Shown: in pieces, positions 2,846 to 59,423 of the stretch
Numbering within the stretch: position 1 is the stretch's first letter
How the letters are laid out: each line of letters opens with the position of its first letter
The notes under the pieces: generated by a model
What the model saw: the letters and a program-made list of their open reading frames with translations, nothing else
What the model was told of the DNA's origin: nothing
Databases searched by the model: none
Translations under genes and position numbers: made by a program
IMG/VR virus record: IMGVR_UViG_3300028886_000035
Location: 64,001-128,000 of that record
Length of the DNA: 64,000 nucleotides
DNA from: a virus
Lineage: Duplodnaviria; Caudoviricetes
Direction: 5' to 3' (one strand)

Positions 2846-3427
2846 TTATTTAAATAAATCTTTTGATACTTCATACATAGTGTCTCGTGAATGTAAGGCA
2901 TCTTGATAATCTTCTTCAACTAGCTTATCCCATTCTTCATCTGTATACTTTACAGAACCATCGTCATGTTGAGAATCATATTCGCTAACAGATTGATATA
3001 AATCATCCATAATTTTATCCACTTTTTCAATCATATAATCTATATCATCTTCTAAATAACTCAAACATTTATCATCATGTTTAATACCATTAATCAAATA
3101 TTTAATTACTTCTTCAGAAGCATTAATATCATCACCCGTTCCTAATACTTCAGGTAAGCCAACTTGTTCAATAGCATCTTTTACATAACCATAATTTTCA
3201 CTATTAGAAAGAAGAAAATCAACAAATCCATTAGCAGTTGCTTCATCATGAAAATTATCTAATCCATCAAATGTCATAAACCAATCCTGTAAAGCACTAT
3301 TTGCACGCCATGTATCATCAATGTAATCCATCAATTCATCTTCTGTCCAATCTTTATCAGACAAAACTTGTTTTAACTGTTCAACAGTATTAATTGATTT
3401 AAATTCTTCTGCTACTTTTTTAAGCAT
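2846..3427 (-). CDS. Acidic hypothetical protein with basic N-terminal tag (MLKKVA)
   Basis: ORF track; ATG at 3427 follows an AAGGTGA RBS; D/E-rich body. Confidence 0.7.
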   Translation of the reverse strand: MLKKVAEEFKSINTVEQLKQVLSDKDWTEDELMDYIDDTWRANSALQDWFMTFDGLDNFHDEATANGFVDFLLSNSENYGYVKDAIEQVGLPEVLGTGDDINASEEVIKYLINGIKHDDKCLSYLEDDIDYMIEKVDKIMDDLYQSVSEYDSQHDDGSVKYTDEEWDKLVEEDYQDALHSRDTMYEVSKDLFK

Positions 3428-3441
3428 TATATATATCACCT

Positions 3442-4554
3442 TTATCCTTTAAAATTCAACATAAATTCATATTCTTCTTTTTGTTTTTCATTTTTTATTA
3501 TATCTAATTCGTATTTTAATTTTAAAATCGGATAATATCTTAATGTAGCCATTCTACAATAAAATTCATCACGAGAAGTTTGTGGTATCTTTGGACAAGC
3601 ATTTCTACAAAGAGACTGTACAGGACAATCATTACAACCATTTAAACCGTGTTCAATCGTTTTATCATGGTCATTAATATTTTTCAATACATCAAAATAA
3701 TTATCATGTATTGTTCCCATCACTTCGGAATCGCCGTGACAACAGTAAAGATTCCCTTGTAAATCTAAATTGATATTTTCTCCACCGTTTCCACAAAATA
3801 ATCTAGTCGGTGTTTTATCACAACCACAATTACAATCTTCTATAAATTTAATATACATTGGATTACTTATAATTTTATCATTTTTGATACAATATAAATA
3901 TTCTTCACAAATTTCTTCCATTTGCTGATAAAATTTATTTTCATCAAACTTCTTTAATTGTGGATTTGGCAATTCTGTATCGTACTGCATTAAATTTTCT
4001 ATATGTACAGATATTTCATGACCAAATTCTTTTTGTACTTCATAACAATCATCTAAATAGTCTTTTGGGTAACAATAAGAAGAAAATACTCCGTCAAAAC
4101 CCCAAAACCCTTCTTTATCTAATTTAAATAAATTTTCTTTATTTTGCGCTATAACATCATAACTACGAGTTATTTTACTGTTTCTCCCATCCCACGATAA
4201 ACCAAATCCTTTTAAATTTTCTTTTATCCACGGAATCGTTTTATCGTTTAATAGCTTACCATTTGTTACCATACTAAAAGTAATATTTTCATTTCCTTCT
4301 TTAGATTTTACCATATCTACTACTTTTTGCATAGTATCAAAATATACTAAAGGTTCTCCACCCCAAAATAATATATTAATCGGATGAATATTATTAGCTA
4401 TATCCAATAACCAATCTATTATCATAGGGTCAATTTCTTTCGCCATAGCATGATTTACTACATCATGTTCAATACAATATCTACAACTTAAATTGCATTT
4501 AAAGCCCATCATTAAATACACTTGATGTATTGGCAAATTTAATACATTTAGCAT
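3442..4554 (-). CDS. Radical SAM/SPASM domain protein, paralog of 1673..2761
   Basis: CNLSCRYC, GGEPLV, TNGKLL and SWDGRNS.ITR.YDV shared with 1673..2761; SPASM cysteines present. Confidence 0.92.
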   Translation of the reverse strand: MLNVLNLPIHQVYLMMGFKCNLSCRYCIEHDVVNHAMAKEIDPMIIDWLLDIANNIHPINILFWGGEPLVYFDTMQKVVDMVKSKEGNENITFSMVTNGKLLNDKTIPWIKENLKGFGLSWDGRNSKITRSYDVIAQNKENLFKLDKEGFWGFDGVFSSYCYPKDYLDDCYEVQKEFGHEISVHIENLMQYDTELPNPQLKKFDENKFYQQMEEICEEYLYCIKNDKIISNPMYIKFIEDCNCGCDKTPTRLFCGNGGENINLDLQGNLYCCHGDSEVMGTIHDNYFDVLKNINDHDKTIEHGLNGCNDCPVQSLCRNACPKIPQTSRDEFYCRMATLRYYPILKLKYELDIIKNEKQKEEYEFMLNFKG

Positions 4555-4558
4555 AACC

Positions 4559-5788
4559 TCAATCCTTTATTCCTTGTAATATCATACCTGTATTTGTCCA
4601 ATCTGCTTTATCAATTGCTTCTTTTACAGTCATAACATGAAGATGTATTCTTTCCGTATCTTCAATAACACCATGTACTTGATTATCATTTTTAACTTTA
4701 TTTATTTCTTCTTCTGATAATTCAACTGTGAACAAAGCTATCTTATGAGAACATAATGTAGCAGCAGACTGTTTCATATCTAATTGTTTAAATCTATTTT
4801 TATTTAATTTTAATCCAGTTTCTTCTTCTAATTCTTTTGAAGCGGTTAACAACATATCATCTAATGGATTTAGTGAACTTCCACCAGGCAACTCATATAC
4901 CATTTCCGTTTCATTATTAATTGGTGTTCTAAATTCTTCACATAAAACAATTTCCGTATCGAGCAAATTATCTTTTTTACAATAAGCTAAGATATAACTC
5001 ATATCTGTTCGTGCAACAACAAATTCATTATCTTTAACCCTATCTTCTTTTGCAATATATACAGAAGGATGAAAAATCTCTAAAAACATTTGTTTTGCTT
5101 TTGGCATAACAAATTCATATTCCATATTAAAATCAGTTAAATAATTTCCAACATTTAACTGTTGTTTATACCAATTTTGAAACTGCTTTGTTTTATATAT
5201 ATGCATTGGTATTTTAACTTCCGTATCTTCACGATAAACACCTTGCCCTAAATATTCTACTGTAGCTTTTAATGTATCCTTTAATGTATTATGCCACTCA
5301 TACTTATCTCTTGAAATTAATTTCAAATATTCCATTCTTGGTGCTTCATCAGGACAACCACAAAACAGTTTGTTTGAATTTAAAAATCGACCAAATTCTA
5401 CATTTGTTGTTAAGCCAATCATTTCAAAATCCGAACGCATTTCTCTAGGAATCCAAAATACAATAGCATCACAAGCGCACATACAACTATATTCCCAATC
5501 TAATTGAGCTTTTAACGTAAATGTACGCTTCATTTCTTCACCTTTGATATTGTTATCATCATAAGGTACTTTTGCTCTATCTTCAGGAATATATACAACA
5601 CCATTATATCCCATTTCTTCTAAAATTTGTAATGCTTCTTTTTTCCACGATAATTCATATTCCTTTCGTGGAACTGGTCCAGCTAAGAACATGGACTTTG
5701 TTTCATCTTTTGGCATATCTTCTCGTGAATATACAACTGTCATTTTATTCATTCCTAAACGTTTCATTAAATCTTTCCTTTCATACAC
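4559..5788 (-). CDS. Nucleoside 2-deoxyribosyltransferase-like + NUDIX hydrolase fusion
   Basis: N-terminal FLAGP..SW..IPE..WE...DAIVFWIPR..TTNVEFG; C-terminal Nudix box ELPGG...ASKELEEETGL. Confidence 0.8.
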   Translation of the reverse strand: MYERKDLMKRLGMNKMTVVYSREDMPKDETKSMFLAGPVPRKEYELSWKKEALQILEEMGYNGVVYIPEDRAKVPYDDNNIKGEEMKRTFTLKAQLDWEYSCMCACDAIVFWIPREMRSDFEMIGLTTNVEFGRFLNSNKLFCGCPDEAPRMEYLKLISRDKYEWHNTLKDTLKATVEYLGQGVYREDTEVKIPMHIYKTKQFQNWYKQQLNVGNYLTDFNMEYEFVMPKAKQMFLEIFHPSVYIAKEDRVKDNEFVVARTDMSYILAYCKKDNLLDTEIVLCEEFRTPINNETEMVYELPGGSSLNPLDDMLLTASKELEEETGLKLNKNRFKQLDMKQSAATLCSHKIALFTVELSEEEINKVKNDNQVHGVIEDTERIHLHVMTVKEAIDKADWTNTGMILQGIKD

Positions 5789-11247: not shown

Positions 11248-12546
11248 TTATAAAGTAATAATCCTATCAAATGGAATTTTATTTTTATCTATTAAATTGT
11301 TATTTGCTATATCATCTAAATAATCTTTAAATAATCCCTTATAATCAAAAATAAATCCATCGTCATATAATTTACTTTCTATATCATGTGGAATTAAATC
11401 AGGTTCATTTAAAGCGACAAAAATACAATCATTTCCGATAAGTATTTCATCTAACAAATCTATATCATATTGTTCTTTAACTAATTTTTTATTACATTTG
11501 TTATCAACAATATAAACTTCCGCACCTGCATCAGTTAAACATTTATACAAATCATAAATTTTAGTATTACGAATATCGTTACAATTTTCTTTAAATGAAA
11601 AACCTAATATTGTAATACGTGGATGTTCTTTATTAATACGGTTTAAAATATTATTTGCTAAAAAGAACGGAACGACTTCATTAACAGTTCTAGCAGAATC
11701 TATTAATCCATACCATTCTTTATTATATTCATTTTCATAATTGATAAAGTAATAAGGGTCTACACCTATACAATGTCCTCCAACCATACCAGGACGATAA
11801 GTGGCACTATTAAAATTAAATTTTGTTTCTGCTGATTCAAGTACATCATGAAAATTAATTCCTGTGTCAGAACAAATCATTTGAAATTCATTTAATAGAG
11901 CAATATTCACATCACGTTTAATATTTTCAAGTAATTTAGACGTTTCTGCTACTTCAAGTGAAGAACATTTATGGAGTCTGTTCTTGGGTAAAATTAAATG
12001 ATATATATCATATACTTTTTCTAATGCATTATCACTTGAACCGGAAATTAACTTAGTTATTTGTTTTATTTTTTTACCATTTTTACCTGGTTGTAATCTT
12101 TCAGGAGAAAAACCAACATAAAAATCTTCATTACATTTTAACAAAGAAATTTTTTCTAATGTGGGAATGCAAATTTCTCTAGTTGTTTTTGGGGCTACAG
12201 TAGATTCAATAATTACTGTGTCTCCTTTTTTTAGATAAAAAGCTACATTAGTAATTGCTTTCGTTAACATTGTAATATCAGGTTTTTTATTTTTATCAAT
12301 TGGAGTTGGAACACAAATAATCCACACATTAGGATTATATATATCTATATCACTTAATTCATTTATATATATAATATCATCTAATAATGTTGTATCAATT
12401 GATTGTGTATTGTCTATACCATTTTTATATTGCTGAATTTTTTCTTTATTCGTATCATATCCATATACAGGAACTTTTTTAACAAATTCACAAGCCAATT
12501 GTATACCAACATATCCTAGACCAACTATACAAATTTTATAATCCAT
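11248..12546 (-). CDS. UDP-N-acetylhexosamine 6-dehydrogenase (TviB/WbpO/WecC family)
   Basis: GLGYVG, CVPTP, ESTV.P, SPER..PG, AE.SKL.EN..RDVNIA, GGHCIGVDPYY, FKENCNDIRNT. Confidence 0.93.
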   Translation of the reverse strand: MDYKICIVGLGYVGIQLACEFVKKVPVYGYDTNKEKIQQYKNGIDNTQSIDTTLLDDIIYINELSDIDIYNPNVWIICVPTPIDKNKKPDITMLTKAITNVAFYLKKGDTVIIESTVAPKTTREICIPTLEKISLLKCNEDFYVGFSPERLQPGKNGKKIKQITKLISGSSDNALEKVYDIYHLILPKNRLHKCSSLEVAETSKLLENIKRDVNIALLNEFQMICSDTGINFHDVLESAETKFNFNSATYRPGMVGGHCIGVDPYYFINYENEYNKEWYGLIDSARTVNEVVPFFLANNILNRINKEHPRITILGFSFKENCNDIRNTKIYDLYKCLTDAGAEVYIVDNKCNKKLVKEQYDIDLLDEILIGNDCIFVALNEPDLIPHDIESKLYDDGFIFDYKGLFKDYLDDIANNNLIDKNKIPFDRIITL

Positions 12547-12559
12547 ATTTTATACTCCT

Positions 12560-13249
12560 TCATATAAATTTGTTGGATAAATAATCATCAATTTTCTTAC
12601 CTAATCTATGATTATTATATTTTATAAAATATTGATTAATATAGTATATTATTAAATGTCTTTTTTTCATTTTCGCGCAACAATCTATGTCAATAATTGT
12701 AAATTTTTTATTTTTATATATGATATTTAAATCATCTAAATCAATAATATTAATATTTTTTATAAAAATCAAATATAAAACAAATATAAATTTTAAAATT
12801 TTATAATTATATTGTTTTTTATAAAAAATCCTTTCTTCTATTAACATGGTATTGCTAAAATAAAATATTTTTGGTAATAAATAGTCCAATCCTTTCTTAT
12901 TAAAATGTTTTAGATTAAAAGGTATAGTTTGTTTTTGATACCTTGTAATAAATCTGATTGCATATTTATTGGTTAATATTTTACTTCTTCCTCTAGTTCT
13001 ATTTGCTACTATAATTTGTTGTTTTTTATAATTAATTAAAACATATTCATTTGAAACTAAGAAACCTTGATTTGTAATTTGAACAACATTATATATTTTA
13101 ATTAATTCTTCATATTTATTTATATTAAATTTATTTCCCAAAATATAATAAAAATCATATTTACCTGTTTTATAATCATTTTTTGTAAAACAACAATTAT
13201 ATTTATTTTTTGCTTCTAATATATCTAAATTAAAATATTCACATATCAT
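12560..13249 (-). CDS. Degenerate protein-kinase-like fold protein
   Basis: PKIF..LIEERI..DLDDLNII..IIDID; paralog of 13250..13936; extremely AT-rich. Confidence 0.4.
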   Translation of the reverse strand: MICEYFNLDILEAKNKYNCCFTKNDYKTGKYDFYYILGNKFNINKYEELIKIYNVVQITNQGFLVSNEYVLINYKKQQIIVANRTRGRSKILTNKYAIRFITRYQKQTIPFNLKHFNKKGLDYLLPKIFYFSNTMLIEERIFYKKQYNYKILKFIFVLYLIFIKNINIIDLDDLNIIYKNKKFTIIDIDCCAKMKKRHLIIYYINQYFIKYNNHRLGKKIDDYLSNKFI

Positions 13250-14004: not shown

Positions 14005-14850
14005 TTACTTAATTGTAATCTTAGCAACGGACATACCATTGACAACGGACATACCGATTTCTTCATAGACAACCCAACCAATACGGAGACGTTCAGGAAT
14101 ATCGGCTGGAATGACTTGGATATCCTGACGAATTGGCATAACACCAACAAACTCTGGGTCAGCAAGTACATAAACTGTATTGAGTGGAACTTTCTTAGAA
14201 ATGAGAATTTCAGCAGTCCACAGATGACCAAATGTACCTGTCTGAAGAACTTCGTGCTGTGTTACTGGGTCGAACTCATTCTGTCCCCACTTACGAATAT
14301 CAGCAAAAGCCTGTGCATTCATGACAATCTTTGTAACGGCGAGGTCATGCTTTTCAACTTCACGGAAAGCAGTAGCAAGAGCATCGCGTGTAAGTCCACC
14401 AGCGGAAATCGTTTCAGGATTTACAGATGTTGCAGCTGCATCGAGAAGTGAGAAGCAAGTTTCATCTTCGACTGCCATAATATCAGACTTAGCACGTTGC
14501 TGGGCACGGTCGATAATATTGAAACGACGTTCCTTAATCTGGGAGAAACGAACCTGTGGATAAGCAACAACTTCAAAAGTTGGAACCTGGATACGTTCAC
14601 CCTCAACGAGCTGGTCTGGAGCCTGTCCACGCTTAGAAACGACAAATGCCTTAGCATCAACATCACGGTCGTAAACAGGAAGTGCGCCCTGTGGAAGTGG
14701 GTCAACAACGAGTAACTTACGTCCAATACCCTGATAATCAAGGGAAGTACGAATTGGGTTAGCCATAGCGGAAGCAAGAGCGGCGCGTCCTTCACTTGTT
14801 TCAAGAGCATTGGAGATTAAATATTCTTTTTCTTCTTGTGTCATAGACAT
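14005..14850 (-). CDS. Major capsid protein (HK97 fold, Bacillus phage G-like)
   Basis: 281 aa; GRAALASAMANPIR.LDYQGIGRKLLVVDPLPQGALPVYDRD; higher GC than neighbours, as for a highly expressed gene; head-module context. Confidence 0.9.
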   Translation of the reverse strand: MSMTQEEKEYLISNALETSEGRAALASAMANPIRTSLDYQGIGRKLLVVDPLPQGALPVYDRDVDAKAFVVSKRGQAPDQLVEGERIQVPTFEVVAYPQVRFSQIKERRFNIIDRAQQRAKSDIMAVEDETCFSLLDAAATSVNPETISAGGLTRDALATAFREVEKHDLAVTKIVMNAQAFADIRKWGQNEFDPVTQHEVLQTGTFGHLWTAEILISKKVPLNTVYVLADPEFVGVMPIRQDIQVIPADIPERLRIGWVVYEEIGMSVVNGMSVAKITIK

Positions 14851-18957: not shown

Positions 18958-19437
18958 TTATTCTTCAGGTTCAGGTTCTTCTGTTTTTTCTTCATTATTT
19001 TCACTATCTAAGTCGAAGTCTGTATCTTCATCAGAATCTTCTTCATTTTCTTCTTCTGATGTATCTTCTGTATTTTCATCTTTTTCAGGCATAGTATCAG
19101 CAGGAATTTCATCATTCAAGTTATAATCACTATTATCAGAATCTGGATTATCTTGATTACTCATATCAATTTGGTCTACATCATATTGTGGAACTAAATT
19201 AAAGTTTTCTAAATCATAACATACGCTAAATAGTCCATCCATAATTTTATCAACCATATCATATTGTTGATGGATTTTATCCCTTAATTCACTATTCGCA
19301 GAAACATTTGTACATTGTTCCATTTTAAATTTAAAATTTTCTAACTCTTTTAAAATTTTACGACCATCTCGTGCGACCCCTTTAACAACGCTTTCAATAG
19401 CTTCGGAATTATCTGCTTTAATTAATCTTTTATTCAT
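18958..19437 (-). CDS. Hypothetical protein with MNKRLIKA tag, coiled coil and acidic tail
   Basis: ORF track. Confidence 0.65.
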   Translation of the reverse strand: MNKRLIKADNSEAIESVVKGVARDGRKILKELENFKFKMEQCTNVSANSELRDKIHQQYDMVDKIMDGLFSVCYDLENFNLVPQYDVDQIDMSNQDNPDSDNSDYNLNDEIPADTMPEKDENTEDTSEEENEEDSDEDTDFDLDSENNEEKTEEPEPEE

Positions 19438-19571: not shown

Positions 19572-20471
19572 TTATGACCAAGGAAGATTACTTAATTTAT
19601 CACTTAATGATTGTATTTTCCCATTAAACGTTCTTTGATTTTTCTCATTCCTATAAACATTATCTTCTTTATGATAATATTTTGGTACAAAAACATTAGA
19701 ACGGTTTTGTTTACTTGCAACTCTTTCTAATATTTTCGCATCTGGGTCTGCACCTTCAGTTACCAAACTATCTTCAAAAAATTCTACACCACGGTTATCT
19801 TCAAAAACAGGTAAACCATTATATGTTAAACCTTTATAATTTAAAATATGTTCACAAACATCATCGTTCGTTCTAGCTTCATGTCCACAAATTGAACAAA
19901 TTGCATATTCACAATGACAACCCATAGATGTATCTGTTACATATCTTTTTTCAATACCTGAAGCTAACTGTGGGAAAGCCTTTTTATCAATAGCTTCTAA
20001 TAATTCAACAAAATATCCATTTGTATTATAAATAGCATCTAATATAATACCACGAGCATCTTCTACATTTTCATCAACATGGTCAACAAATACTGATTTA
20101 CCAATAAATGTTTTATATGTTTTTAATAATTCTTCATGCGAGAAAAAATCTCCATTTAAATTAGCATTTCTGCAAACCTGTGAATATTTCGCAAAATCGT
20201 TATAATATTCTTCGATAGGAACTAATTCTACCGAACCACCTTTGTGTTCAATAACATTTCCTGCCGAAACTGCACGGTTTCTAATATATAAAAAATCTTT
20301 TTCTTTTGGAACAATCTTAACTACTTTGGCAGTCTTAGTTATATTATTCAAAGTTTTACTATCTTTTAATAAAGATAAATTTGCTTTATTGTTACCAAAT
20401 AATGTAACATTACCATTTTTTTCTAAAGTATAATCTTCTATACGACCTCTCGTATTATTAATAACAATCAT
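19572..20471 (-). CDS. Prohead (capsid maturation) protease with Zn-ribbon insertion
   Basis: NLNGDFF..YKTFIGK.VF.DH..GIILDA..TSMGC..CSICGH..CEH..FFEDS.V..GADP.A; between portal and MCP. Confidence 0.8.
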   Translation of the reverse strand: MIVINNTRGRIEDYTLEKNGNVTLFGNNKANLSLLKDSKTLNNITKTAKVVKIVPKEKDFLYIRNRAVSAGNVIEHKGGSVELVPIEEYYNDFAKYSQVCRNANLNGDFFSHEELLKTYKTFIGKSVFVDHVDENVEDARGIILDAIYNTNGYFVELLEAIDKKAFPQLASGIEKRYVTDTSMGCHCEYAICSICGHEARTNDDVCEHILNYKGLTYNGLPVFEDNRGVEFFEDSLVTEGADPDAKILERVASKQNRSNVFVPKYYHKEDNVYRNEKNQRTFNGKIQSLSDKLSNLPWS

Positions 20472-20488: not shown

Positions 20489-20788
20489 TTAAAGAGTTTC
20501 CCATATTTTAATTTCATGTAAATATCTACTTGCTACATCTAAACATTCTTGCCAATGTTTATCAACTTCTTCAATTGGACAAACTTCATCTAACAAACCA
20601 AATTGAATGGATTGAGCTAAATTATATGTTAATCCACCTGTGGGAACAAGTGGTAAATCTGCAAGAATTTTTTTTGCAATTAAAAACGCATTATTCGCGT
20701 TCATTTTATCTGTAGCTTGCTTTTTAACAAGAGTTGTGACAACATCATGCGTATACGGAGATACATGATTACTTAATCTTTTAAACAT
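20489..20788 (-). CDS. Hypothetical protein (MFKRLS tag)
   Basis: ORF track; AGGAG RBS. Confidence 0.6.
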   Translation of the reverse strand: MFKRLSNHVSPYTHDVVTTLVKKQATDKMNANNAFLIAKKILADLPLVPTGGLTYNLAQSIQFGLLDEVCPIEEVDKHWQECLDVASRYLHEIKIWETL

Positions 20789-22181: not shown

Positions 22182-23924
22182 TTATTCATCTTTTATTTTT
22201 TTATTTGTAAAAGTTTTTCCCCTTCTATTAAAGAATTTATCTAAATCTAACGAAGTTTTTACATCATGAGTTTGTAAACCAAAATCTTCAGGATTGTTAC
22301 CTATACTTGGCGTATTTGATGGAGAACTAGGTCTATTAAACGAATTTTCTTCTTCATTTTCTTCACGAGACGGCTTGTTTTCTCTAATTGTATCGCCTGT
22401 CTCATATTCATTAACAATAGGTTTACCTTCATTTGGAAGCGGACCAGTTTTTGGAGCATTCTCGTCGAAAACGCTACCCCTTTCTCTTTCAAGATTGCGT
22501 TTTTCTGTTTCAGGGTCAAGACTAAGTAAAGGCAATACGGTTGTCATTGAAACTAAACCTTTATCACGTAAACTTTGAATAAATGACATTACTGTTTGAT
22601 TTGACGTTAAATCCTGATGTTGCCATAATAATTTTGGTACAATCAATTCCATCTCTTTATTCGCAGCAGCACGTTTAATTTCTTTTGGAGACATATATCT
22701 ACGAGCAATAGAACCATTAATAGGTTTATAAAAACCTTGTGTTTCTGCAATAGGTTTATACACTTTATTTCTAATCCATGATTCCAAACGTAATCTATAA
22801 GCCATATATCTTCTTGCTAATGCTTCTGCGCCAACATTTGCAGCTGAATAAGCAGAACCATCACCATTTAACATAGCTTGTGTAATACCTAATCCTGTCA
22901 TTAATTCATTTTGAATAAAATCAAACTCTGTATTTAATGGAAGGATTTTACCTGTAGAACCAACATACTCAAATGATAATCCATAATGATATACTAAGAA
23001 GAAGTTTGGGTCATCCTCACCTTCCATTAATATATCACGAAAACTATCAATATCATCCTGTGTAGGCATTGGTTCACCAGGCGTACCTATTTTAGCTACA
23101 CGTAAAGGCATAATATGTCTATTAGCTATTGCATCCTGTGCTTGTCTTAATTTATCTTTATAAATTAAAGTTTTAAAACAACGCATCATTAAAGGTGTTC
23201 CCCATGTTTCATAAGGACTTGCTTTGTGTGCAATATGAGAAATCAAACGATTATCTAATGATATATTTTTACCCATTTTTACTTGTGTAATTATATCATC
23301 AGGGAATTGTCTATATAATTCTCCAAATTCTCCTGATGGACCACCTGAAATTATATTTGTAATTTGGTCATCAGGAATCAATTCAATTTGTTGTTCGCCT
23401 GCAAAAATAGAAGCGGTTACATTTACATAATCAGGATTTAATAATGTAAAGTTTTCCCAAATTCCTTCAGATTCATTAAATTGACCGAAAGGAAATACGT
23501 CTCCTATTTTCCAATATTCTAATCCAATTTCCAATAATAAATTAATTAAATCAAGTTTATCAAACGCCATATAATCAAAAAAACGTTTAATATATGGGTC
23601 ACTACAAACATTACTTAAATCAGAAATTGGAAATTCTGTATGTAAATCTAATGCCGTAGCAATTATCGGTTCAGTTCTATAAAAATGTCTGCACCACTCA
23701 TTACGTTCACGTCTATCACGAGGCAACAACATATTTGTTGTCTGAAATAATGGCTGATAGAATGTTGGATTACCCATTCTAACAACACCACTAGAAGCGT
23801 GTACAGTTTTCCCACGTTTCATTCTTGATTGTATTCTTTTTGGTAAATCTGATTTATTTACAATACTATTTTTTGCAAGATTACCATCATATCCTGCGGT
23901 AACAGTTTTATGATTTTTTCTCAA
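22182..23924 (-). CDS. Portal protein
   Basis: 580 aa; WCRHFYRTEPII..LHTEFP, GDVFPF, LLNPDYV, WGTPL, L.TGLGI..AMLNGDG.AY; TTG start with AGGTG RBS. Confidence 0.85.
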   Translation of the reverse strand: MRKNHKTVTAGYDGNLAKNSIVNKSDLPKRIQSRMKRGKTVHASSGVVRMGNPTFYQPLFQTTNMLLPRDRRERNEWCRHFYRTEPIIATALDLHTEFPISDLSNVCSDPYIKRFFDYMAFDKLDLINLLLEIGLEYWKIGDVFPFGQFNESEGIWENFTLLNPDYVNVTASIFAGEQQIELIPDDQITNIISGGPSGEFGELYRQFPDDIITQVKMGKNISLDNRLISHIAHKASPYETWGTPLMMRCFKTLIYKDKLRQAQDAIANRHIMPLRVAKIGTPGEPMPTQDDIDSFRDILMEGEDDPNFFLVYHYGLSFEYVGSTGKILPLNTEFDFIQNELMTGLGITQAMLNGDGSAYSAANVGAEALARRYMAYRLRLESWIRNKVYKPIAETQGFYKPINGSIARRYMSPKEIKRAAANKEMELIVPKLLWQHQDLTSNQTVMSFIQSLRDKGLVSMTTVLPLLSLDPETEKRNLERERGSVFDENAPKTGPLPNEGKPIVNEYETGDTIRENKPSREENEEENSFNRPSSPSNTPSIGNNPEDFGLQTHDVKTSLDLDKFFNRRGKTFTNKKIKDE

Positions 23925-39845: not shown

Positions 39846-42800
39846 TCATCTAAATTTATATCTACCTGCCGTTGCTTTTGGCATATGTCCTCTACGACCT
39901 TCTACTGTTGCAAAGTTGGCAAGAACATCACTATCAGGTACATCATCATGATAACCTAATGGTGCTTCAATTTTCTTATTAACAGAATAACCTGTAACTG
40001 TTTGTTCCAAATCTGCCCATTCGCTTACCATACGATGATAGTATCCAATATTATTTTCTCCTGCACCTTCCGCAGTTGATTTTAAAAATCTTTCTTTAGT
40101 CATATATTTAAATTTACCATTATCTAATTCCTGTCTCCACTTTGCATACATGATATTTTTCATATTCATTCCTGAACCTGTAAATCTATCACGAGCATTA
40201 AAAATAATTCCCTCTAAATTTTTAATACCAAATTCTTCCTGCAAAGTTTGAACAACCGCAGCTCCACAACCTGTATAATCTGCAAAAATCTTTTTACATT
40301 CAAATCGTGGATGATAACCACCAAATAAATTAGATATATAGTACATTTGTTGTGGATAACTTGTATCCTGAAATTCTTTGGAGAAAACTTTTTGTTTTGT
40401 TCCATCACGAGCTACACGCAATACGGTAATTTGCGTACTATCTCCATCAGGATTACTACCTGCAAAGTCAATACCTGCTACATAATTTTCTCCAATAATT
40501 CCGTGGTCTATCCAATCAAATTGTCCATCTGTCATTTTCTTTATTTGGTCACTATCCAAATATTTGCCTGCGCCATCAATAAATTCAAGCATATATTGTG
40601 TTTTAAAATCTTCGATAGACAAGTTTCCTTCTGTCCATAATTCAGGATTATTAGGGAACATTTCTTCTTTTAAAACTTTAGGCATAGCTTGTTCTAATAC
40701 GAATCGTGAATATGGACGTACAATACCTGTTTTTGGGTCAGGTAAATATATTGCATCTAATGCCCATAACTGTTGACATTGTGTCCAATCTCTACGTACT
40801 ACAGTCCATTTATCATGTGCTTTACCTTCTACTGCATCATAAAAATGATTGCGAGTCTTTGGTGTACCAATTTGCACTATTTTAGCATTTGTGTTATGAA
40901 CAAAGATGCCATTTGCAATAAATGAATGGTGTTTGTCTACTGTCAAATCATAAACGTGTTGTAATCCTGAGAATTCAACTTTTACAACTCTTGAAAATCT
41001 CAAATCAGTATCAAGTAGTTCCTTTGGAATTTTATGTTTATGTTGTTTTAAAATTTCTACACCTTTGTTCAAAGTTTCTTGTTTATAAGAAACCAAAAGT
41101 TTGAAATTCTTATGGAAATTTTCAACTGATTCTTTATCCTTTACATGCAACACATAATATTTTTTGTAGCTAACTGTTTTGCCATTAATTTGATGTTGTT
41201 TTTTTCCATTTCTCTCTTGTATATAACTCTGTACGCCAAATTTACAAAGAATATCTTGAACATTTTTAACAATATTCAAACATATCGAAACAAATTCAAT
41301 TCTGCAACGTCTATTTTCTTCAAGACGTACAGAACCATCAGTATCATACAGCCCGCCAATTAATTCCTGTAAAGACTCTTTATCCCATTTTTCAAAATCT
41401 TTTGGTAATATTTTACTCATAGACGTTTTACCATCCAATCCAGAGTCTTTCATATGTTGCACAAAACCAATAATCGTACCGCTTTTATAATTACGATTAT
41501 CTTTTGTCACAAAACACTTTGAAGAAATTTCGCTAAATTTAAAACCCATAGAGTTAATATAATCAATCAATTCTTGGTCTTGGGTAAAATATTGTGCAGA
41601 GTTTATACAACATCCGTCACCTATCATCATTCCAAACAAACGGGCATACTGATTATGAATTGTACCAAAGAATGGCAATTCTTTCGGAATTCCCACCTGA
41701 TAGCCAACTTTAATTTTATCCAAACGTTCCCATCTTGGAATTCTTGCTTTTTTTGTTTCTCTGCTTTTTACAATAATGGGGTGGTCATCTGTACCACAAA
41801 TAGTTTTGCCATTAGCCAAAGTAATTGTTATGGTATCATATACACCTGTATCATGAAATTCTGTAATATTGCCTTTAACAATCTTTTTTGTGTCAAAATC
41901 AACACATGGAATTTCATTTATATTTTTATTATTCACCAATTCTTCTATAGTTTGCGTTGTTCCATCAAGCAATTGAATTTGGGAATTGCCTATCAAACAG
42001 CCGCCTCCCATAGGCACAATTCGTTCGCTGAATGTATAATCTGATACTTTCTGTGCCTCGTCCAATACAATAACGTCAAACGTTAAACCTTCAATATTGG
42101 ATTGGTCACTTGCTGATACCGCAGTTACATAAGATTTATTGCTTAATTCAATTCTATCTTTTGTTAGTTTTACTATTTTATTATTCAATCTATCTTCATT
42201 CATTTGAAAGAATGTAGATAAACGTCCAATAGATACTTCTGCCTGTTGTAAACGTGGGGTAAAGACACCTACTCGCATTTGTGGATAATTATCTATTAAA
42301 AATCCACAAAAAGAGCTAATAGATTCTGTATTATGTGTTACTGTATAATCCCCCAATAAAAACAAATGGTCAGGAGAATCTATTGTAAAACCGAAATATT
42401 CTCCTATTCCTTTTGGTTTAACTTTAAATTTAAAAATCAAACTGAAATTATTATCTGATAAATTTTTAGTTTTAACAGAAGATAATAACGAAAATCTACC
42501 AAAGAAATAAATGGAATTAGTTTTCTTATTCTTTTTTAAATTAGCTTTCATACCAACAGAACGAATTAAATCTAGCATTTCACAAGCAAAATTAAAATCA
42601 TCAATCTTTAATTTTATTTTATCTTTTCCTATTGTTGAACTTTTTCCATCAACAAATCCAGATAAAAATAGCAACCTTGTTTCTAATGAATTTATTTTTA
42701 TATCATGCAAAATATCATTGTTTGTATGATGATTAATATAGTCTTGGATGTTTTTATCAAAAACATTTTTCTCTTTGTTTGACAAAATTTTTCCTAAATT

Positions 42801-44555
42801 ATATACATTAAAATCAAAAGCAATATATTGATAATTTATATTTGCTCTATATCCAAATAAAGTTTTTCGTTCTTGTAAAGGTAATTTTAAATAATCTTTA
42901 ATCTCTATATTAAAGATATTGTTTTTTGTATCAATCAAAGATATTATATGGGAAGCATTAACAGTAAACGGTTCATATCCAATATCATTCGGTATTATTT
43001 CAAACATATCTTCATATCCATGACCTAAATTTGTAACTAATCTAGGTTCGCTTGTAGGAGACATTACATAATCTCCGATTTTTATATCTTCTACGTTTTT
43101 CCTTGAGCCATCTGCCATCAAAATTTTTGTTCCCTTTGCGAAACACTTGCCCGAATTATGAACTACCATACCTCCTGCAATAAACCATCCTTTATTTGGA
43201 AATTCTACATCCCAAACTTCTCCTATACCGATTTCTTTCCTTGATACAAACGGAGAATAATATAAATTTTCCCCATCTAAGCCTTTTTCTGTTTTTAATG
43301 GATTGCATCCTTTTGCATATTTAACATTAGGCATTGGCTTATCCAATATATCTCCAATAGTATTTATAAAATTTTTTCTATTTCTTTGACCACCTATAGA
43401 GATTCTATAAAACCATTGTGTACTCTTTTTAAACCATTCTTTTTTTATTGACCCACGAATCCCTAATTTATTTAAATTTTCTCTTAAAAATTGTGCGTAT
43501 TCCCATGATGTTTTTCCTGATAATCCCATTTCATAATTTAATTTATTTCGTTTTATCTTTTTAGAAATCCATCCATCACCACACCACATACCTCTGAAAA
43601 AAGCACATAATTGTGATTTTGTAAAATAATTTAATGCACGAGGTATTCTGTTTTCATCATAATTTAAAATTCTAATAAAGTCTTTAAATGAGTTTTTATT
43701 ATCTTTTTTACCAGTTGTAAATAATAATTGTGAGCCTTTTCCATTTGTATATTCTTTTATATGAATATCATGGAAATATTTTTCAACAATATATTTCACT
43801 CTATTCAAATAATTTTTATTGATATTTGTAAATTTACATGATTGTCGTGGATTTTTAAAATATCCATCCGATGTTATAAAACCTACTAATTCTGCCAATT
43901 CATCATTCATTTCAAAAATACCTTCATGTACTTGATTTGGCGAATGTATATTTATAAAAGTTTCATAACGATATGGTATTTTACCATCACCAAATTTATC
44001 CCATGAATCCAAACATAAAACCCAATCTTGTTTTGCTAGTTCATCTGCACGTTTCCAACCATTTTGTGTTTTGATAGGGTGATTACCTGTACATTTAATA
44101 ATATGTCCACCTTTTACATGAATTTCAAAAATAGGAGCATTATCATTTGTTTTCCATGCATCTTTATATTCTTCAATAGGAATTAATTTTCCATCACGAG
44201 TATGAATAATTGTTCCTTTTAATAAACATTGTCGGCTCATCATTCCTGCTACCTGTTTCAATTTTGGATTACATACTGCACGAATTAAAGCAGTTTGATT
44301 TTCATGTAATTTCTGTCTGCTTTCAGGCAAATGGTGGCGTAACACATTTTCACAATATTCTACAGGGTCTAATCTATTTAAAAAATGATGATAAATAAAA
44401 TCATCTAATTCTTCACCGTTAATAACATTTTCTTTACTTGACGCTACTATATCATCTTTTATAACAGATAAATTGTTTTGAATGTCTTTTGTCAACGCTT
44501 GTGTAGGCGTTTCTTCTTTATGCTTTATAGGCAATTTATATATCATTCCTTTCAT
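39846..44555 (-). CDS. terL: Terminase large subunit with three inteins (about 570 aa after splicing)
   Basis: Spliced Walker A SRQSGKTE, Walker B VIVLDEAQ, GTP coupling motif, nuclease GIDFA..D and HDDVPDS. Confidence 0.93.
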   Translation of the reverse strand: MKGMIYKLPIKHKEETPTQALTKDIQNNLSVIKDDIVASSKENVINGEELDDFIYHHFLNRLDPVEYCENVLRHHLPESRQKLHENQTALIRAVCNPKLKQVAGMMSRQCLLKGTIIHTRDGKLIPIEEYKDAWKTNDNAPIFEIHVKGGHIIKCTGNHPIKTQNGWKRADELAKQDWVLCLDSWDKFGDGKIPYRYETFINIHSPNQVHEGIFEMNDELAELVGFITSDGYFKNPRQSCKFTNINKNYLNRVKYIVEKYFHDIHIKEYTNGKGSQLLFTTGKKDNKNSFKDFIRILNYDENRIPRALNYFTKSQLCAFFRGMWCGDGWISKKIKRNKLNYEMGLSGKTSWEYAQFLRENLNKLGIRGSIKKEWFKKSTQWFYRISIGGQRNRKNFINTIGDILDKPMPNVKYAKGCNPLKTEKGLDGENLYYSPFVSRKEIGIGEVWDVEFPNKGWFIAGGMVVHNSGKCFAKGTKILMADGSRKNVEDIKIGDYVMSPTSEPRLVTNLGHGYEDMFEIIPNDIGYEPFTVNASHIISLIDTKNNIFNIEIKDYLKLPLQERKTLFGYRANINYQYIAFDFNVYNLGKILSNKEKNVFDKNIQDYINHHTNNDILHDIKINSLETRLLFLSGFVDGKSSTIGKDKIKLKIDDFNFACEMLDLIRSVGMKANLKKNKKTNSIYFFGRFSLLSSVKTKNLSDNNFSLIFKFKVKPKGIGEYFGFTIDSPDHLFLLGDYTVTHNTESISSFCGFLIDNYPQMRVGVFTPRLQQAEVSIGRLSTFFQMNEDRLNNKIVKLTKDRIELSNKSYVTAVSASDQSNIEGLTFDVIVLDEAQKVSDYTFSERIVPMGGGCLIGNSQIQLLDGTTQTIEELVNNKNINEIPCVDFDTKKIVKGNITEFHDTGVYDTITITLANGKTICGTDDHPIIVKSRETKKARIPRWERLDKIKVGYQVGIPKELPFFGTIHNQYARLFGMMIGDGCCINSAQYFTQDQELIDYINSMGFKFSEISSKCFVTKDNRNYKSGTIIGFVQHMKDSGLDGKTSMSKILPKDFEKWDKESLQELIGGLYDTDGSVRLEENRRCRIEFVSICLNIVKNVQDILCKFGVQSYIQERNGKKQHQINGKTVSYKKYYVLHVKDKESVENFHKNFKLLVSYKQETLNKGVEILKQHKHKIPKELLDTDLRFSRVVKVEFSGLQHVYDLTVDKHHSFIANGIFVHNTNAKIVQIGTPKTRNHFYDAVEGKAHDKWTVVRRDWTQCQQLWALDAIYLPDPKTGIVRPYSRFVLEQAMPKVLKEEMFPNNPELWTEGNLSIEDFKTQYMLEFIDGAGKYLDSDQIKKMTDGQFDWIDHGIIGENYVAGIDFAGSNPDGDSTQITVLRVARDGTKQKVFSKEFQDTSYPQQMYYISNLFGGYHPRFECKKIFADYTGCGAAVVQTLQEEFGIKNLEGIIFNARDRFTGSGMNMKNIMYAKWRQELDNGKFKYMTKERFLKSTAEGAGENNIGYYHRMVSEWADLEQTVTGYSVNKKIEAPLGYHDDVPDSDVLANFATVEGRRGHMPKATAGRYKFR
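40893..41999 (-). mobile_element. Intein 3 (369 aa) with LAGLIDADG endonuclease
   Basis: G|CLIGNS ... FVHN|T; LFGMMIGDG and IGGLYDTDG motifs. Confidence 0.9.
42330..43145 (-). mobile_element. Intein 2 (272 aa) with degenerate endonuclease
   Basis: K|CFAKGTKILMADG ... VTHN|T; only an FLSGFVDG remnant. Confidence 0.9.
43155..44228 (-). mobile_element. Intein 1 (358 aa) with LAGLIDADG endonuclease
   Basis: Q|CLLKGT ... VVHN|S; LVGFITSDG and FRGMWCGDG motifs. Confidence 0.9.
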
Positions 44556-44864: not shown

Positions 44865-45287
44865 TTAGTAACTTTTTTTACCATCAATTATAGTATCAAT
44901 ATAATTTTTATATTTATCTGATAAATCGCCTATAAGCATATCATATGCGTTCCAAAAATCTTCTTCTCCAACTCTTGCAGTATCATTCCTACTAAACAAA
45001 TGCAACACATGATTATTATCCTTTAAATTTACAAGTGTATCATCAACAAATGAAATATCAATCATATCTGAAATTGCATCTGAAACGATAGTTTGTATAT
45101 CTTCATCATTTAATGTTTTTTTATCACTATAAAAATTATTAACAACGTTATTAATATTTTTTTTAATTTCTGCATCGGATTTATTACAAAAATCCATCAT
45201 AATTTCAAAAAAATCATGTTCTGTTTTCGGAGTTCCATCACTATTGATATTTTTAATTTTAATATTATTTGCAAACAATCTTTTCAT
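44865..45287 (-). CDS. Hypothetical protein (MKRLFA tag)
   Basis: ORF track; GAGG RBS. Confidence 0.6.
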   Translation of the reverse strand: MKRLFANNIKIKNINSDGTPKTEHDFFEIMMDFCNKSDAEIKKNINNVVNNFYSDKKTLNDEDIQTIVSDAISDMIDISFVDDTLVNLKDNNHVLHLFSRNDTARVGEEDFWNAYDMLIGDLSDKYKNYIDTIIDGKKSY

Positions 45288-46344: not shown

Positions 46345-47802
46345 TCACCTCACATCTATGATATTCTTTCTCATATCTATGATATTGTTTTTAACGATAT
46401 TTTTAACTTTATTACGCAAATCTATACATACTTTTCTTAAATCTTTTACTAAATGAAATTTGTTTGCTAAACGAACAAAATAGTTTTCTCCATAATAAGG
46501 ATTTGTATAAACCTTATTTATATTTGATTCGTTTTTTAATGCTTTTGCTACTTCTTCTTGTGAACAATTAAATGTATCGTCATCAACAAAAGCAATATCT
46601 CCAACTACATGACCAAATCCTACTTTTTCATCATTGATTTGATTTTGCACAGACCTTCTACTACGATTTTTATTACTATCATCACCTGTTATCATATTAA
46701 CCAAATCTCTATGTGTCGCATTTGAATCTTTTCCAAAATAAATTTTTCCTTCATAATAAATAAAAGGTTTATCACGATTAAAATCATTAATGTGGTCAAT
46801 ATTTTTAGTTGGTATTCTCCTACCAATCGCATCATCATTATTATCTAATTCTGTTACCAAATCATTTGCTTGCGCATTTTTTATTTTAGAAAAAGCACTT
46901 CTATATTTATAAGCAGAAGAATCTGTATTTAAATAATTAAACCATTGTTTTTCTTCATCATCTGTGGAAATTTTATTTTGTTTTCTCAAAAAATTTATTA
47001 CATCACTGGGATATTCAACACCTAATTGGTCTAATGGCATATTAGCAAAATGTTTTTTTATATCATCGGAATCGAGTAATTCAGTATATTGCTTATCAAA
47101 ATCTATATCTGCCGTTCTACGTAAATCTAAAACTTTTTTACTACCATACGCATAAACTAACGGGAAATTTTCGTCTCGTGGTTCATCACGCATGTCTAAC
47201 ATGGGATATTCTTCTTTATATTTCTTTAATTCACGTAACCAATGAGCCAATTGTAAGTGTTCTTCTCCACAAGCATCACAACCAGTCAAGCTATATAAAT
47301 TATTATATGCTACTTCATCTGCATGTTCAATTGCTTCATCTAAAGACATTAAAGCAGTTTTTTTATTGTTATTACGTAAATCAACAATATTCAATCTTAA
47401 ATCTTTAATAATTGGACTCACCTTCTTGGCTTGCAATTCTATCTGTTGAAAAGAATTATTAATTTTTGTAATACGATGAATAAGACGATTTGCATTATAA
47501 TTTACACAATGATAAGCATCGCTTTTACGTTTAAGATTAAATTTACTTAAACGACCAAAATACTTATCTTTTACATTATCTCCACGCAAATATACTTTGC
47601 CATTACAACAATCAATAATTACAGAATCATATTTATTCATATATTTACCATTTAAAGCTACTTTTACATAGCTATTATTTCTTTTGCTATTCAAATTATT
47701 ATTTTTAAATTCTTGATTAAAATAATCAACTAATGCAAGCGTGAAGTCATCATTTTTACTATCATTTGGTTTAACTGTAATCTTAGCCACAAGTCTTTTC
47801 AT
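46345..47802 (-). CDS. Multidomain protein (MKRLVA tag) containing the TH/FGH domain (family member 4)
   Basis: RDKPFIYYEG..THRDL..FGHVVGDIAF..EEVAKALK..KVY..RLAN. Confidence 0.75.
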   Translation of the reverse strand: MKRLVAKITVKPNDSKNDDFTLALVDYFNQEFKNNNLNSKRNNSYVKVALNGKYMNKYDSVIIDCCNGKVYLRGDNVKDKYFGRLSKFNLKRKSDAYHCVNYNANRLIHRITKINNSFQQIELQAKKVSPIIKDLRLNIVDLRNNNKKTALMSLDEAIEHADEVAYNNLYSLTGCDACGEEHLQLAHWLRELKKYKEEYPMLDMRDEPRDENFPLVYAYGSKKVLDLRRTADIDFDKQYTELLDSDDIKKHFANMPLDQLGVEYPSDVINFLRKQNKISTDDEEKQWFNYLNTDSSAYKYRSAFSKIKNAQANDLVTELDNNDDAIGRRIPTKNIDHINDFNRDKPFIYYEGKIYFGKDSNATHRDLVNMITGDDSNKNRSRRSVQNQINDEKVGFGHVVGDIAFVDDDTFNCSQEEVAKALKNESNINKVYTNPYYGENYFVRLANKFHLVKDLRKVCIDLRNKVKNIVKNNIIDMRKNIIDVR

Positions 47803-52085: not shown

Positions 52086-52658
52086 TTAAAATTCAATCAA
52101 ATCAGATTCACTACTAAGTTCATCATATTTTGATTCTGCTCCATCTGTACCTGCTTTAACCACTTGATTAAAAACATCCTTTAGAGCATTTGTAATTTTG
52201 CTATTAACCTGATTTTTTGTAACAAGATTTGTTCCTTTAATTGTGTGAGCAACCAATTGATTTACTTTGTCTTGTTGTTCTTCTGTTAAGTCTTTTGTCT
52301 CTTTATAAATATATTTTGTTGATTCTTTACCAATTAATGTATCAAAATAAGAATTAATACCTTCAACAAATTCTGTAACAATTTCATTTACAGGAATATC
52401 TGCAAAATTAGGTTTATCTCCATTAGAAATACTATTTAAAACTTCCGTAAATGCGTCATCTACCAATGCATAATAGCCACCTAAACAATCATCTGCTTCA
52501 GGTTCAACACTATCTTTTAAACCAAATGCAAAAGATTTATATTCATTTGAATTTTCAACTTTAGTTTTAGCTTGCATAAAAATTCTTGTAGTAATTCTAG
52601 CTACATCCATATTTAGTTTTTCTGTTGCTTCAATTAAACGTTTTTTAATAATATTCAT
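52086..52658 (-). CDS. Hypothetical protein (MNIIKKRLIEA tag)
   Basis: ORF track. Confidence 0.65.
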   Translation of the reverse strand: MNIIKKRLIEATEKLNMDVARITTRIFMQAKTKVENSNEYKSFAFGLKDSVEPEADDCLGGYYALVDDAFTEVLNSISNGDKPNFADIPVNEIVTEFVEGINSYFDTLIGKESTKYIYKETKDLTEEQQDKVNQLVAHTIKGTNLVTKNQVNSKITNALKDVFNQVVKAGTDGAESKYDELSSESDLIEF

Positions 52659-54068: not shown

Positions 54069-54307
54069 TATTTATCTCCATTACTCCCAATTCCCAATAG
54101 AACTTTTGTAATATATATTGCAAGTGCGACAATGAAGGATTGCCCCCATGTTAATTGAGTTAATCCAAAACCACAATTGAGTAAATATCCTATAAAATAT
54201 ACTAATACTGTACATACACCTAAATGGGTTAAAATTAGTCCAATTGTAATAACAGCAAACATACATAATAATATAAGTTTTTCCATTATCTCTTTTTTCC
54301 TTTCCAT
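54068..54307 (-). CDS. Small membrane protein
   Basis: Hydrophobic segments. Confidence 0.55.
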   Translation of the reverse strand: MERKKEIMEKLILLCMFAVITIGLILTHLGVCTVLVYFIGYLLNCGFGLTQLTWGQSFIVALAIYITKVLLGIGSNGDK

Positions 54308-54780
54308 TTTAAAAAATCTACGTAATTATTTATTTTCATAAATTTATAAATCAAATCGTTTGTAATGCTACGACACGAATTTTTTAGTGTGGTATCAAAT
54401 CTTGTTTTTAATTTCGCGTTCCGAATCGGTTTTTGTACTATTTCTATTTTATTATTTTCATCTACGTATAATAAACCAAATTCTTTTAAAACTAATTCTT
54501 TTGGTATTACATCTTTTGGACACATAATATAAAAGTAGTTACAATGTGGATAATATGATTTTTCTAAATTAAATAATTTTTTGTCTCTTTTATAGTCCTT
54601 TAAAGAAGCCTTTACTTCTACTACACGCACTTCTTTCCGTTTTAAATTCATCCCACAAGCATCTGCCACACTACGTAAATTTCTGAATTTAGTTTCTACC
54701 GATACTATATCTGTACAATATTTTTTTAAAAATCCACAAGCTACTATTTTTAATCTCTTATGTACTTCACTCTCTGCCAT
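54286..54780 (-). CDS. MmcB-like PD-(D/E)xK nuclease
   Basis: H..LK, ADACG, VEVKAS..D...DKK, CNYFYIMCP. Confidence 0.7.
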   Translation of the reverse strand: MAESEVHKRLKIVACGFLKKYCTDIVSVETKFRNLRSVADACGMNLKRKEVRVVEVKASLKDYKRDKKLFNLEKSYYPHCNYFYIMCPKDVIPKELVLKEFGLLYVDENNKIEIVQKPIRNAKLKTRFDTTLKNSCRSITNDLIYKFMKINNYVDFLKWKGKKR

Positions 54781-55453: not shown

Positions 55454-55474
55454 TTCACATCGCCATTATTATTA

Positions 55475-58082: not shown

Positions 58083-58085
58083 AGA

Positions 58086-58409: not shown

Positions 58410-58504
58410 AAAGGAGAAATAAAAGATGAGACTGATTGATATGTAAAGTCAATGAAAACTATTTGTTATTTTTCTAACATAAGTATAGGGAAGGAGAGAA
58501 TAAA

Positions 58505-58669: not shown

Positions 58670-58739
58670 AAATAATGAGAACATATAGATGTAAGGTAAA
58701 AACTATTAAATATGCGGAAGTAGTTGTTTTTGCCAAAAA

Positions 58740-58785
58740 TAAATTTAAGGAACCCACGAATTTATTCGTGGGTTCCTTAAATTTA
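58740..58785. terminator. Long perfect hairpin at a convergent junction
   Basis: taaatttaaggaacccacgaat / attcgtgggttccttaaattta. Confidence 0.85.
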
Positions 58786-58800
58786 TTATCCTTTATTCAT

Positions 58801-59127
58801 TTAACTAGCATATTTATACGGACTACCTTTTACAATTACTCCACTATATGTATGTGGGCATTTTTTACATCCAAATTGGCAAGTCCCTGTTACTTTATCT
58901 GTTACTCTTGCTATTTTTAAATCTTCTGCATAACTATATGGACTACCTGTGATAATCTGTCCTTTCCCTCCACAAGTACAACATACTACGGTATCTGTTA
59001 TTCTTGCTATCTTTAAATCATCACTATAACTATGTGTACTTCCACTCGTAATAATTCCTACTTGCGTTCCATGTGGACAAGTTATTTTTACTGTATCTCC
59101 CAATCTTGCTACAGGTTGATTACTCAT
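58801..59127 (-). CDS. PAAR-repeat baseplate spike tip protein
   Basis: PVARLGD, KIARITD, KIARVTD repeats with ITSGS/ITGS and CPH metal ligands. Confidence 0.88.
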   Translation of the reverse strand: MSNQPVARLGDTVKITCPHGTQVGIITSGSTHSYSDDLKIARITDTVVCCTCGGKGQIITGSPYSYAEDLKIARVTDKVTGTCQFGCKKCPHTYSGVIVKGSPYKYAS

Positions 59128-59423
59128 AATTTTTCTACTGCTTCACTTACTAATTTAGCATATTCATTGCAAATATCATTTCCGATTTGTGTATCTTCTG
59201 TATCCATCATTTCAGAAATCTTATCTACTACATCATCCAATGTACCATCAATCGTTAAAATTCCTTCAATTGTTCCTAAATCTGCCGTTTCATCTTCAGA
59301 CATATCTTCTTTAATTTGTTTGCATAATGTATCAAATTCATCTTTATTTTCAGAAATATATTCTTTTACATATTTCACTACATCTGCTTCATTTACTTCT
59401 GCAATTAATCTTTTCTTCATCAT
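59124..59423 (-). CDS. Small acidic protein (MMKKRLIA tag)
   Basis: ORF track. Confidence 0.65.
   Translation of the reverse strand: MMKKRLIAEVNEADVVKYVKEYISENKDEFDTLCKQIKEDMSEDETADLGTIEGILTIDGTLDDVVDKISEMMDTEDTQIGNDICNEYAKLVSEAVEKL

Follow-up and report, generated by a model that had tools for sequence, protein, structure and literature searches.

In a rumen phage of the Caudoviricetes (IMG/VR record IMGVR_UViG_3300028886_000035; 281,186 bp, 28% GC), some twenty proteins, mostly unrelated to one another, begin with the same short basic peptide, in which Lys-Arg-Leu (KRL) is followed by a small residue. We are nearly certain that this N-terminal tag is a genuine, conserved and portable peptide signal. 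We analysed a stretch of 64,000 nucleotides (bases 64001-128000 of the record; hereafter the window), whose minus strand holds nearly all of its genes, against a gene call for the whole genome (361 proteins of at least 50 amino acids, aa). A sequence-only reading of the window had listed nine open reading frames (ORFs) with KRL close to the start, at 18958, 20489, 30079, 30274, 31616, 44865, 46345, 52086 and 59124, and all nine are present; as these ORFs lie on the minus strand, their tags are at the high-coordinate ends. A tenth tagged ORF of the window, at 4559-5767, starts with MKRLG.

Genome-wide, 18 of the 361 proteins have KRL within residues 2-12 (17-18 when counted over the first residues). 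Column shuffles, which preserve the Lys-rich composition of each N-terminal position, gave an expectation of 1.33 ± 1.04, with a maximum of 6 in 300 shuffles; this comparison with shuffled controls, which the sequence-only reading had asked for, bears out the enrichment and rules out chance or Lys-rich starts as its source. The internal rate of KRL (18 in 73,257 positions) predicts 0.7 N-terminal cases, a control window at residues 31-41 contains none, and the enrichment amounts to 13-25-fold. An unbiased tripeptide scan placed KRL at the top of N-terminal enrichment (p 3e-18), as did the same scan in Bacillus (Lysinibacillus) phage G (p 7e-20). One of the KRL hits, in 54286-54780 (MAESEVHKRL), was discarded as a chance match, its orthologues having KNL or KHL. 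Two variant starts had also been put forward. MLKKVA at 2846 has neither Arg-Leu nor an orthologue and is thus unsupported. MKNVIKRVS, at the start of a 190-aa protein (36412-36984, minus strand; M(KNV)IKRVS), is conserved as [KR]R[VIT][SD]D in four relatives, with orthologue starts such as MVIKRIS, MIRRVSD and MIRRTDD, but its membership of the tag family is uncertain; it is possibly a divergent tag with Arg-Val for Arg-Leu.

The Arg of the tag is encoded by AGA (9 cases), CGT (6), CGC (3) and CGA (1), four codons are in use for the Leu, and tags in phage G occur also after TTG and GTG starts, which shows that the peptide is under selection rather than an RNA or DNA motif. Since genes of this AT-rich genome often open with A-rich, Lys-rich codons at positions two and three, the tag could nevertheless be a feature of translation initiation, in the mRNA or in the nascent peptide, selected for expression level. 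We hold this to be highly improbable: shuffles that keep composition yield 1.3 cases where 18 are observed, Arg is rare (3.1%) yet invariant and drawn from all four codons, the tag may start anywhere from one to eight residues after Met, and neither the acidity of the tagged class nor its enrichment at head genes, both described below, would be explained.

The tag extends across the clade of phage G, whose gp1-gp27 are syntenic with the head module of the window. Among the GenBank N-termini of phage G, those of gp9, gp10, gp12, gp13, gp17, gp20, gp38, gp53, gp56 and gp57 carry it, and gp5 opens with the tag-like variant SRIKK. Its whole genome holds 22 cases of KRL against 1.3-4.2 expected, and about 34 tag-like N-termini with the consensus MKRL[IVLM]KK[AS]. 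Three uncultured IMG/VR relatives (contigs of 100-152 kb) have 16 of 149, 13 of 137 and 12 of 156 proteins tagged (8-11%), where about one would be expected, and the distant portal relatives Rctr197k and LR745208 show no excess of ATG-Lys-Arg-Leu (3 vs 3 and 7 vs 6).

Arg-Leu is invariant in tagged orthologues that are otherwise 23-50% identical. All 11 orthologues of a scaffold-like head-module protein start with the tag, R4 and L5 being invariant at a mean column identity of 33%; in eight orthologues of a small protein resembling phage G gp17, R4 and L5 are likewise invariant, the remainder being 27-83% identical (52% mean column identity); and in seven further tagged orthologue sets all or most members begin with the tag or something close to it. 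These alignments point to purifying selection on the tag. Tags also occur twice in one protein: in one relative a scaffold-like orthologue (L035:10852-11658, plus strand) is extended N-terminally by about 70 residues, the extension opening with its own MKRLIA tag and the ancestral one (TRLKKIA) being kept internally, and the phage G protein at 70929-71849 has two tags in tandem. In a set of 95 tags drawn from five genomes, 61 have their Arg as residue 3 and 18 as residue 4. In 86 of the 95, at least one of the seven residues after the tag Leu is Ala or Ser (chance expectation about 52%), and the position of this residue peaks sharply, at +2 for the rumen lineage and +4 for that of phage G; a small residue fixed in this manner resembles a cleavage site and may be one.

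Structural models of two tagged head-module proteins place the tag outside the fold. The scaffold-like protein (159 aa; 18958-19437, minus strand; MNKRLIKA), encoded directly downstream of the prohead protease gene, consists of the tag, a helical hairpin (residues 11-77) and an acidic disordered tail. In its AlphaFold2 (AF2) model the helices span residues 11-45 and 49-77 at a predicted local distance difference test score (pLDDT) of about 90, and residues 1-10 score 57. The gp17-like protein (99 aa; 20489-20788, minus strand; MFKRLS) is modelled with residues 1-10 disordered (pLDDT 48), followed by a helical fold for which Foldseek returned no match in the PDB. The tag is thus predicted in both cases to be a low-confidence extension.

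What follows the tag is varied. With the tag removed, 55 tag-like proteins from two genomes fall into 41 BLAST families; their lengths run from 58 to 740 aa, and the majority match no family. Recognisable folds comprise GNAT, Nudix/deoxyribosyltransferase-like, zinc ribbon, LysM (phage G gp5, whose SRIKK start is merely tag-like), ADP-ribosyltransferase-like (ART-like) and a helical hairpin. Paralogues do exist among the bearers (seven ART-like proteins of phage G, the family of the protein at 46345, and another family of three), and the tag might on this account be the relic of one exploded gene family in which only the N-terminus is still common; with 41 families, such a range of lengths and folds that differ, this origin seems hardly credible. 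Capsid, portal and decoration proteins and both peptidases are untagged. The earlier claim that recognisable enzymes lack the tag holds in part, the tagged exceptions being the Nuc_deoxyribosyltransferase-like/Nudix protein at 4559-5767 and a GNAT at genome positions 202260-202634, which is one of two tagged GNATs, the other being in the relative G002.

The seven tagged phage G paralogues (L001:35181-36311; L003:929-1846 and 11748-12584; L007:13175-13849; L008:8674-9204; L011:15994-16464; L021:16709-17353) have in common the arrangement tag-x(4-6)-[LF][FY]HGTS ... VYL ... PVxLE, an H-G-T-S ... Y ... E layout. Their matches to PARP, Diphtheria_C and DUF3990 are weak and all below Pfam thresholds, so the label ADP-ribosyltransferase-like is tentative. 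T4 Alt, with which a parallel may be drawn, is packaged. By these features, the tagged cargo looks effector-like.

The bearers also have a common charge. With the first 12 residues left out, Asp and Glu make up 19-21% of tagged proteins vs 13-15% of the rest in each of five genomes (p 2e-3 to 4e-8), and net charge per residue is -0.065 vs 0.000 in the window's genome (p 4e-5) and -0.104 vs -0.019 in phage G (p 4e-10). Physico-chemically, then, the tagged proteins form a class and not a random set; scaffold and core proteins are acidic too. A strongly basic tag on strongly acidic bearers, in five genomes, could be a 'sticker' that serves assembly or location elsewhere than in the head interior, by contact with DNA or the nucleoid, with a chaperone, or with the acidic tails of other bearers, and tandem double tags suit multivalent binding better than a single cleavage. 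We consider this distinctly unlikely, as it leaves the enrichment in the head module unexplained, and the invariant Arg-Leu with a small residue at fixed spacing points to a specific binding pocket and not just to charge.

That enrichment is marked: from the scaffold gene to the genes just beyond TerL, 7 of 25 genes are tagged vs 13 of 336 elsewhere (odds ratio 9.7, p 1e-4), and gp1-gp20 of phage G are likewise enriched (odds ratio 6.2, p 0.004). Because the tag is portable, conserved in the clade, enriched at head genes and present on a scaffold-like protein, an analogy with capsid targeting in T4 is reasonable. We posit that the phage G lineage uses M-K-R-L-[I/V]-(K-K)-[A/S] as an N-terminal address label, portable between proteins. 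As a flexible extension of 5-10 residues before unrelated, mostly acidic proteins, the scaffold-like protein included, it would draw its bearers into the assembling prohead, and after assembly either the prohead serine protease or an M16B peptidase of the same module would trim it off, cutting at the conserved small residue or close to it. Head incorporation, a receptor (which may be the major capsid protein) and cleavage are what we infer here from position, analogy and class properties, and we give this reading, in which scaffold and varied acidic cargo are brought into the prohead and then trimmed, slightly less than an even chance of being correct.

Several observations weigh against it. 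Roughly one tagged gene in two is found at a distance from the head module, dispersed over the genome, and the enrichment at the module is effectively a single evolutionary observation, since it comes from one clade with common synteny. Head proteins show no internal enrichment of tag-like motifs; the prohead protease, should it be what cuts the tag, would therefore have to recognise different sequences at its other sites. Compared with the capsid-targeting sequence (CTS) of T4, the tag is both shorter and more basic, and no sequence similarity of the prohead protease to T4 gp21 was detectable. The main texts of the phage G papers and a jumbo-phage review do not mention the tag or any N-terminal processing of tagged proteins. 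No paper was found with MKRLIKK, MKRLIK or MKRLVK, the sole match to MKRLIA being an unrelated paper on tumour neoantigens, and the tag is apparently undescribed in the searchable literature. Co-folding of the capsid protein, the prohead protease and residues 1-32 of the scaffold-like protein gave a score of 0.01, which is no verdict and is used neither way.

Two enzymes of the head module are candidates for removing the tag. The first is the prohead protease (19572-20471, minus strand; phrog_18299 head maturation protease, E 1.4e-17; gp19 in phage G), which is 55-95% identical in relatives, with H131, S182 and H208 invariant in the order His...Ser...His. It has no Pfam match and a profile search against PDB sequences was empty, so its specificity is not transferable from a relative. 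Separately, its C-terminus, ...L-x-N-L-P-W-S, is nearly invariant over 11 relatives and may be the protease's own prohead anchor.

The second candidate is an M16B peptidase (38519-39739, minus strand) encoded between TerL and a sigma factor. It matches Pfam Peptidase_M16 and M16_C, has an intact HLAEH at residues 44-48, and its nearest solved structures are 3HDI (Bacillus halodurans) and the mitochondrial processing peptidase subunit beta-MPP; HxxEH is also found in phage G gp2. As judged from its motifs, an active-type M16B (HxxEH with a downstream Glu) is thus encoded beside its presumptive substrates, and it stands beside head genes in five of the five relatives tested. Among the listed records of the phage collection, the sole substantial head-module homologue is that of phage G (39% identity), other matches being mostly short unannotated fragments and weaker ones, for example in Microcystis phage MaAM05; a literature search on phage M16 peptidases returned nothing relevant. 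MPP removes Arg-containing N-terminal presequences, which makes the co-occurrence of M16B and tag worthy of attention, although that co-occurrence is one clade-level event.

The same pairing supports a reading in which the tag is a protease recognition signal with no packaging role, either a presequence-like handle for M16B or an N-terminal degron for a host ClpXP-like protease, which would time the activity or lifetime of its bearers. An intact, MPP-beta-like M16B is conserved in the clade and otherwise not seen as a head-module homologue in the phage collection, and the two distant portal relatives that do not appear among the M16 matches also have no ATG-Lys-Arg-Leu excess. The 'R-3' pattern of MPP is R-x-hydrophobic, then the cut, then A/S, and the R-L-[I/V/F]-A of the rumen lineage fits it; the location of half of the tagged genes away from the head module fits too. 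Yet the association of M16 and tag amounts to a single event in one clade, the R-L-I-K-K-A/S spacing of the phage G lineage fits neither R-2 nor R-3, and presequences are much longer than the tag. Radical-SAM peptide pathways, too, employ M16B peptidases. There is no ClpP gene in the window's genome, which removes a phage ClpXP as the reader of the tag, and pure turnover leaves the tagging of the scaffold-like protein and head module unexplained. Overall, we regard a protease signal of this kind as unlikely.

A further version joins packaging to the metalloprotease, as an organelle-like presequence system: the basic Arg-Leu tag would send a varied acidic cargo (5-11% of the proteome, with ADP-ribosyltransferase-like, GNAT and Nudix enzymes among it) and the scaffold to the prohead, and M16B, not or not only the prohead protease, would clip it. 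We think this very unlikely; if true, it would mean a second, metalloprotease-based maturation step, unknown in phage assembly. A Sec, Tat or lipoprotein signal peptide was considered and rejected for tagged proteins, in which there is no hydrophobic h-region (the top 12-residue Kyte-Doolittle mean over residues 1-40 is at most 1.5 and mostly below 1).

The remaining tagged proteins of the window are all encoded on the minus strand. Two adjoin each other: a 62-aa protein resembling phage G gp10 (30079-30267; MKKRLIS), whose orthologues start with MKRLVAR, MKSRLRK and MKKSRLKK, and a 120-aa protein resembling gp9 (30274-30636; MKRLAK), with orthologue starts MKRLTV, MKSRLKR, MPSRLRK and, after a TTG start, TRLKK. 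An 87-aa protein with no family match (31616-31879; MKRLVK) has an orthologue in G002 that begins with MKRLIR. Just beyond TerL, a 140-aa protein (44865-45287; MKRLFA) has no trustworthy family match. The 485-aa protein at 46345-47802 (MKRLVA) matches phrog_33451, of unknown function, and belongs to a family with a common C-terminal domain; G002 has five adjoining tagged genes, four of which match it, three of these through that domain. In a 190-aa protein (52086-52658; MNIIKKRLIEA) the tag is shifted inward by four residues, and a 98-aa protein (59124-59420) starts with M(M)KKRLIA. An enzyme-like bearer of 402 aa (4559-5767) combines a Nuc_deoxyri_tr2 domain (Pfam PF15891, E 1e-9) with a Nudix-like region (PHROG nudix matches); its orthologues in three relatives begin with MKRLGK, MQRLIKK and MKRLVKA, so that it is tagged in four genomes of the clade. 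From its domains, it is a candidate nucleotide-directed counter-defence enzyme.

The sequence-only reading had gone further and supposed that the tag is usable at either terminus. C-terminal RLA does occur five times in the window's genome against 0.32 expected, and in phage G it occurs 0 times against 1.1 expected; three of the five cases are tandem paralogues with one common C-terminal domain. Since the cases are paralogous and phage G has none, we reject a C-terminal tag. The internal K/R-x-A motifs noted in 27954-29969 (minus strand) are weak: four [KR]xA[DE] sites compare with 0.8 predicted from composition (p = 0.008, uncorrected for about 57 tests), and none occur in the phage G orthologue. 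A single site in this protein, L-[DQK]-K-x-A at residues ~120-127, is conserved in nine orthologues with its Lys invariant. It lies at the junction of a conserved N-terminal domain and a long acidic low-complexity region, and could be a processing site. Internal tag-like motifs in general were set aside as cleavage sites, given that they are not enriched in head proteins.

The head module further includes the untagged major capsid protein (14005-14850, minus strand; 281 aa, no delta domain), an orthologue of phage G gp27 with a weak Pfam Phage_capsid match and 78-95% identity among relatives, and the untagged portal (22182-23924, minus strand; phrog_16240, E 1e-128), which is 67.5% identical to phage G gp14. 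TerL (39846-44534) is laden with inteins, and the sigma factor lies at 37847-38506. A neighbour of the portal, at 24395-26779 (minus strand; 794 aa), is a repeat protein with four phrog_5004 repeats and a tail-fibre-like match; it contains 19 [KR]A[DEN] tripeptides vs 2.5 by composition, and its length is kept at 794-810 aa in relatives.

Promoter motifs found in the genome comprise a sigma-A-like class (TTGACA) and a second motif, TATAACCATAGAGA. Eight tagged genes are preceded by an intergenic region, and a sigma-A-like promoter occurs in none of the eight vs 51 of 188 overall, which is weak evidence. A separate TTGACAAA class, resembling a sigma-A -35 element, occurs in 45 intergenic regions. 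Outside the window, at 177-206 kb of the genome (window-relative 113225-141752), at least 13 small genes each have, some 40 nt ahead of them, approximately TATGGTAATATATAACCATAGAGA and then a ribosome-binding site; from its recurrence, the TATGGTAATATATAACCATAGAGA element looks like a dedicated promoter or leader class of this small-gene array.

Should the tag prove to direct loading into the head, sequence would directly reveal which proteins phage G and its many uncultured relatives of gut and rumen package and probably inject, about 20-35 per genome and many of them enzyme-like, and 6-9 residues would offer a tool for putting foreign proteins into very large capsids. Two new clues emerge to the arrangement of proteins inside giant capsids: a conserved M16B peptidase encoded among the head genes, and the acidic character of the tagged proteins. 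As phage G is cultured and its virion proteomics are published, the idea of head loading is quickly testable.

The closest known counterpart is in T4, where the CTS of IPI, IPII, IPIII and Alt is cut off by the prohead protease gp21, according to passages in PMC10052503 (citing Mullaney & Black 1996) and in the reviews PMC3012670 and PMC9026906. Like the CTS, the tag of the phage G clade is a short N-terminal peptide common to otherwise unrelated, fast-evolving proteins; its genes partly cluster with head genes, a conserved residue that ends it is a potential cleavage site, and its bearers include enzyme-like candidates for injection. The sequences themselves are unrelated, the CTS (MKTYQEFIAE) ending in Glu and the tag being basic, KRL..., with Ala or Ser at its end. 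Whereas the CTS is found on a handful of proteins, the tag is on 5-11% of all proteins and also on the scaffold-like protein; its bearers are acidic where the internal proteins of T4 are basic; and packaging and cleavage are, in the phage G clade, putative.

A second likeness is to the presequences of MPP (1HR6-1HR9), in that a basic, Arg-containing N-terminal signal is found in the same genome as an MPP-beta-like M16B with intact HxxEH, and the R-L-[IV]-A of the rumen lineage resembles the R-3 cleavage pattern. Unlike the 15-50-residue amphipathic helix of a presequence, the tag has 5-9 residues, directly followed by acidic or folded sequence; the R-L-I-K-K-[AS] of the phage G lineage departs from both MPP patterns, and the tie between peptidase and tag here is their co-occurrence in one clade. 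Finally, whilst encapsulin cargo-loading peptides are mostly C-terminal and of other sequence, and docking of the N-terminal tag on the capsid protein is hypothetical here, the tag resembles these peptides and the scaffold-to-coat motifs of P22 in being a short terminal peptide that could dock inside an HK97-fold shell, in a context where the capsid protein is small (281 aa), conserved (78-95% identical) and free of a delta domain.

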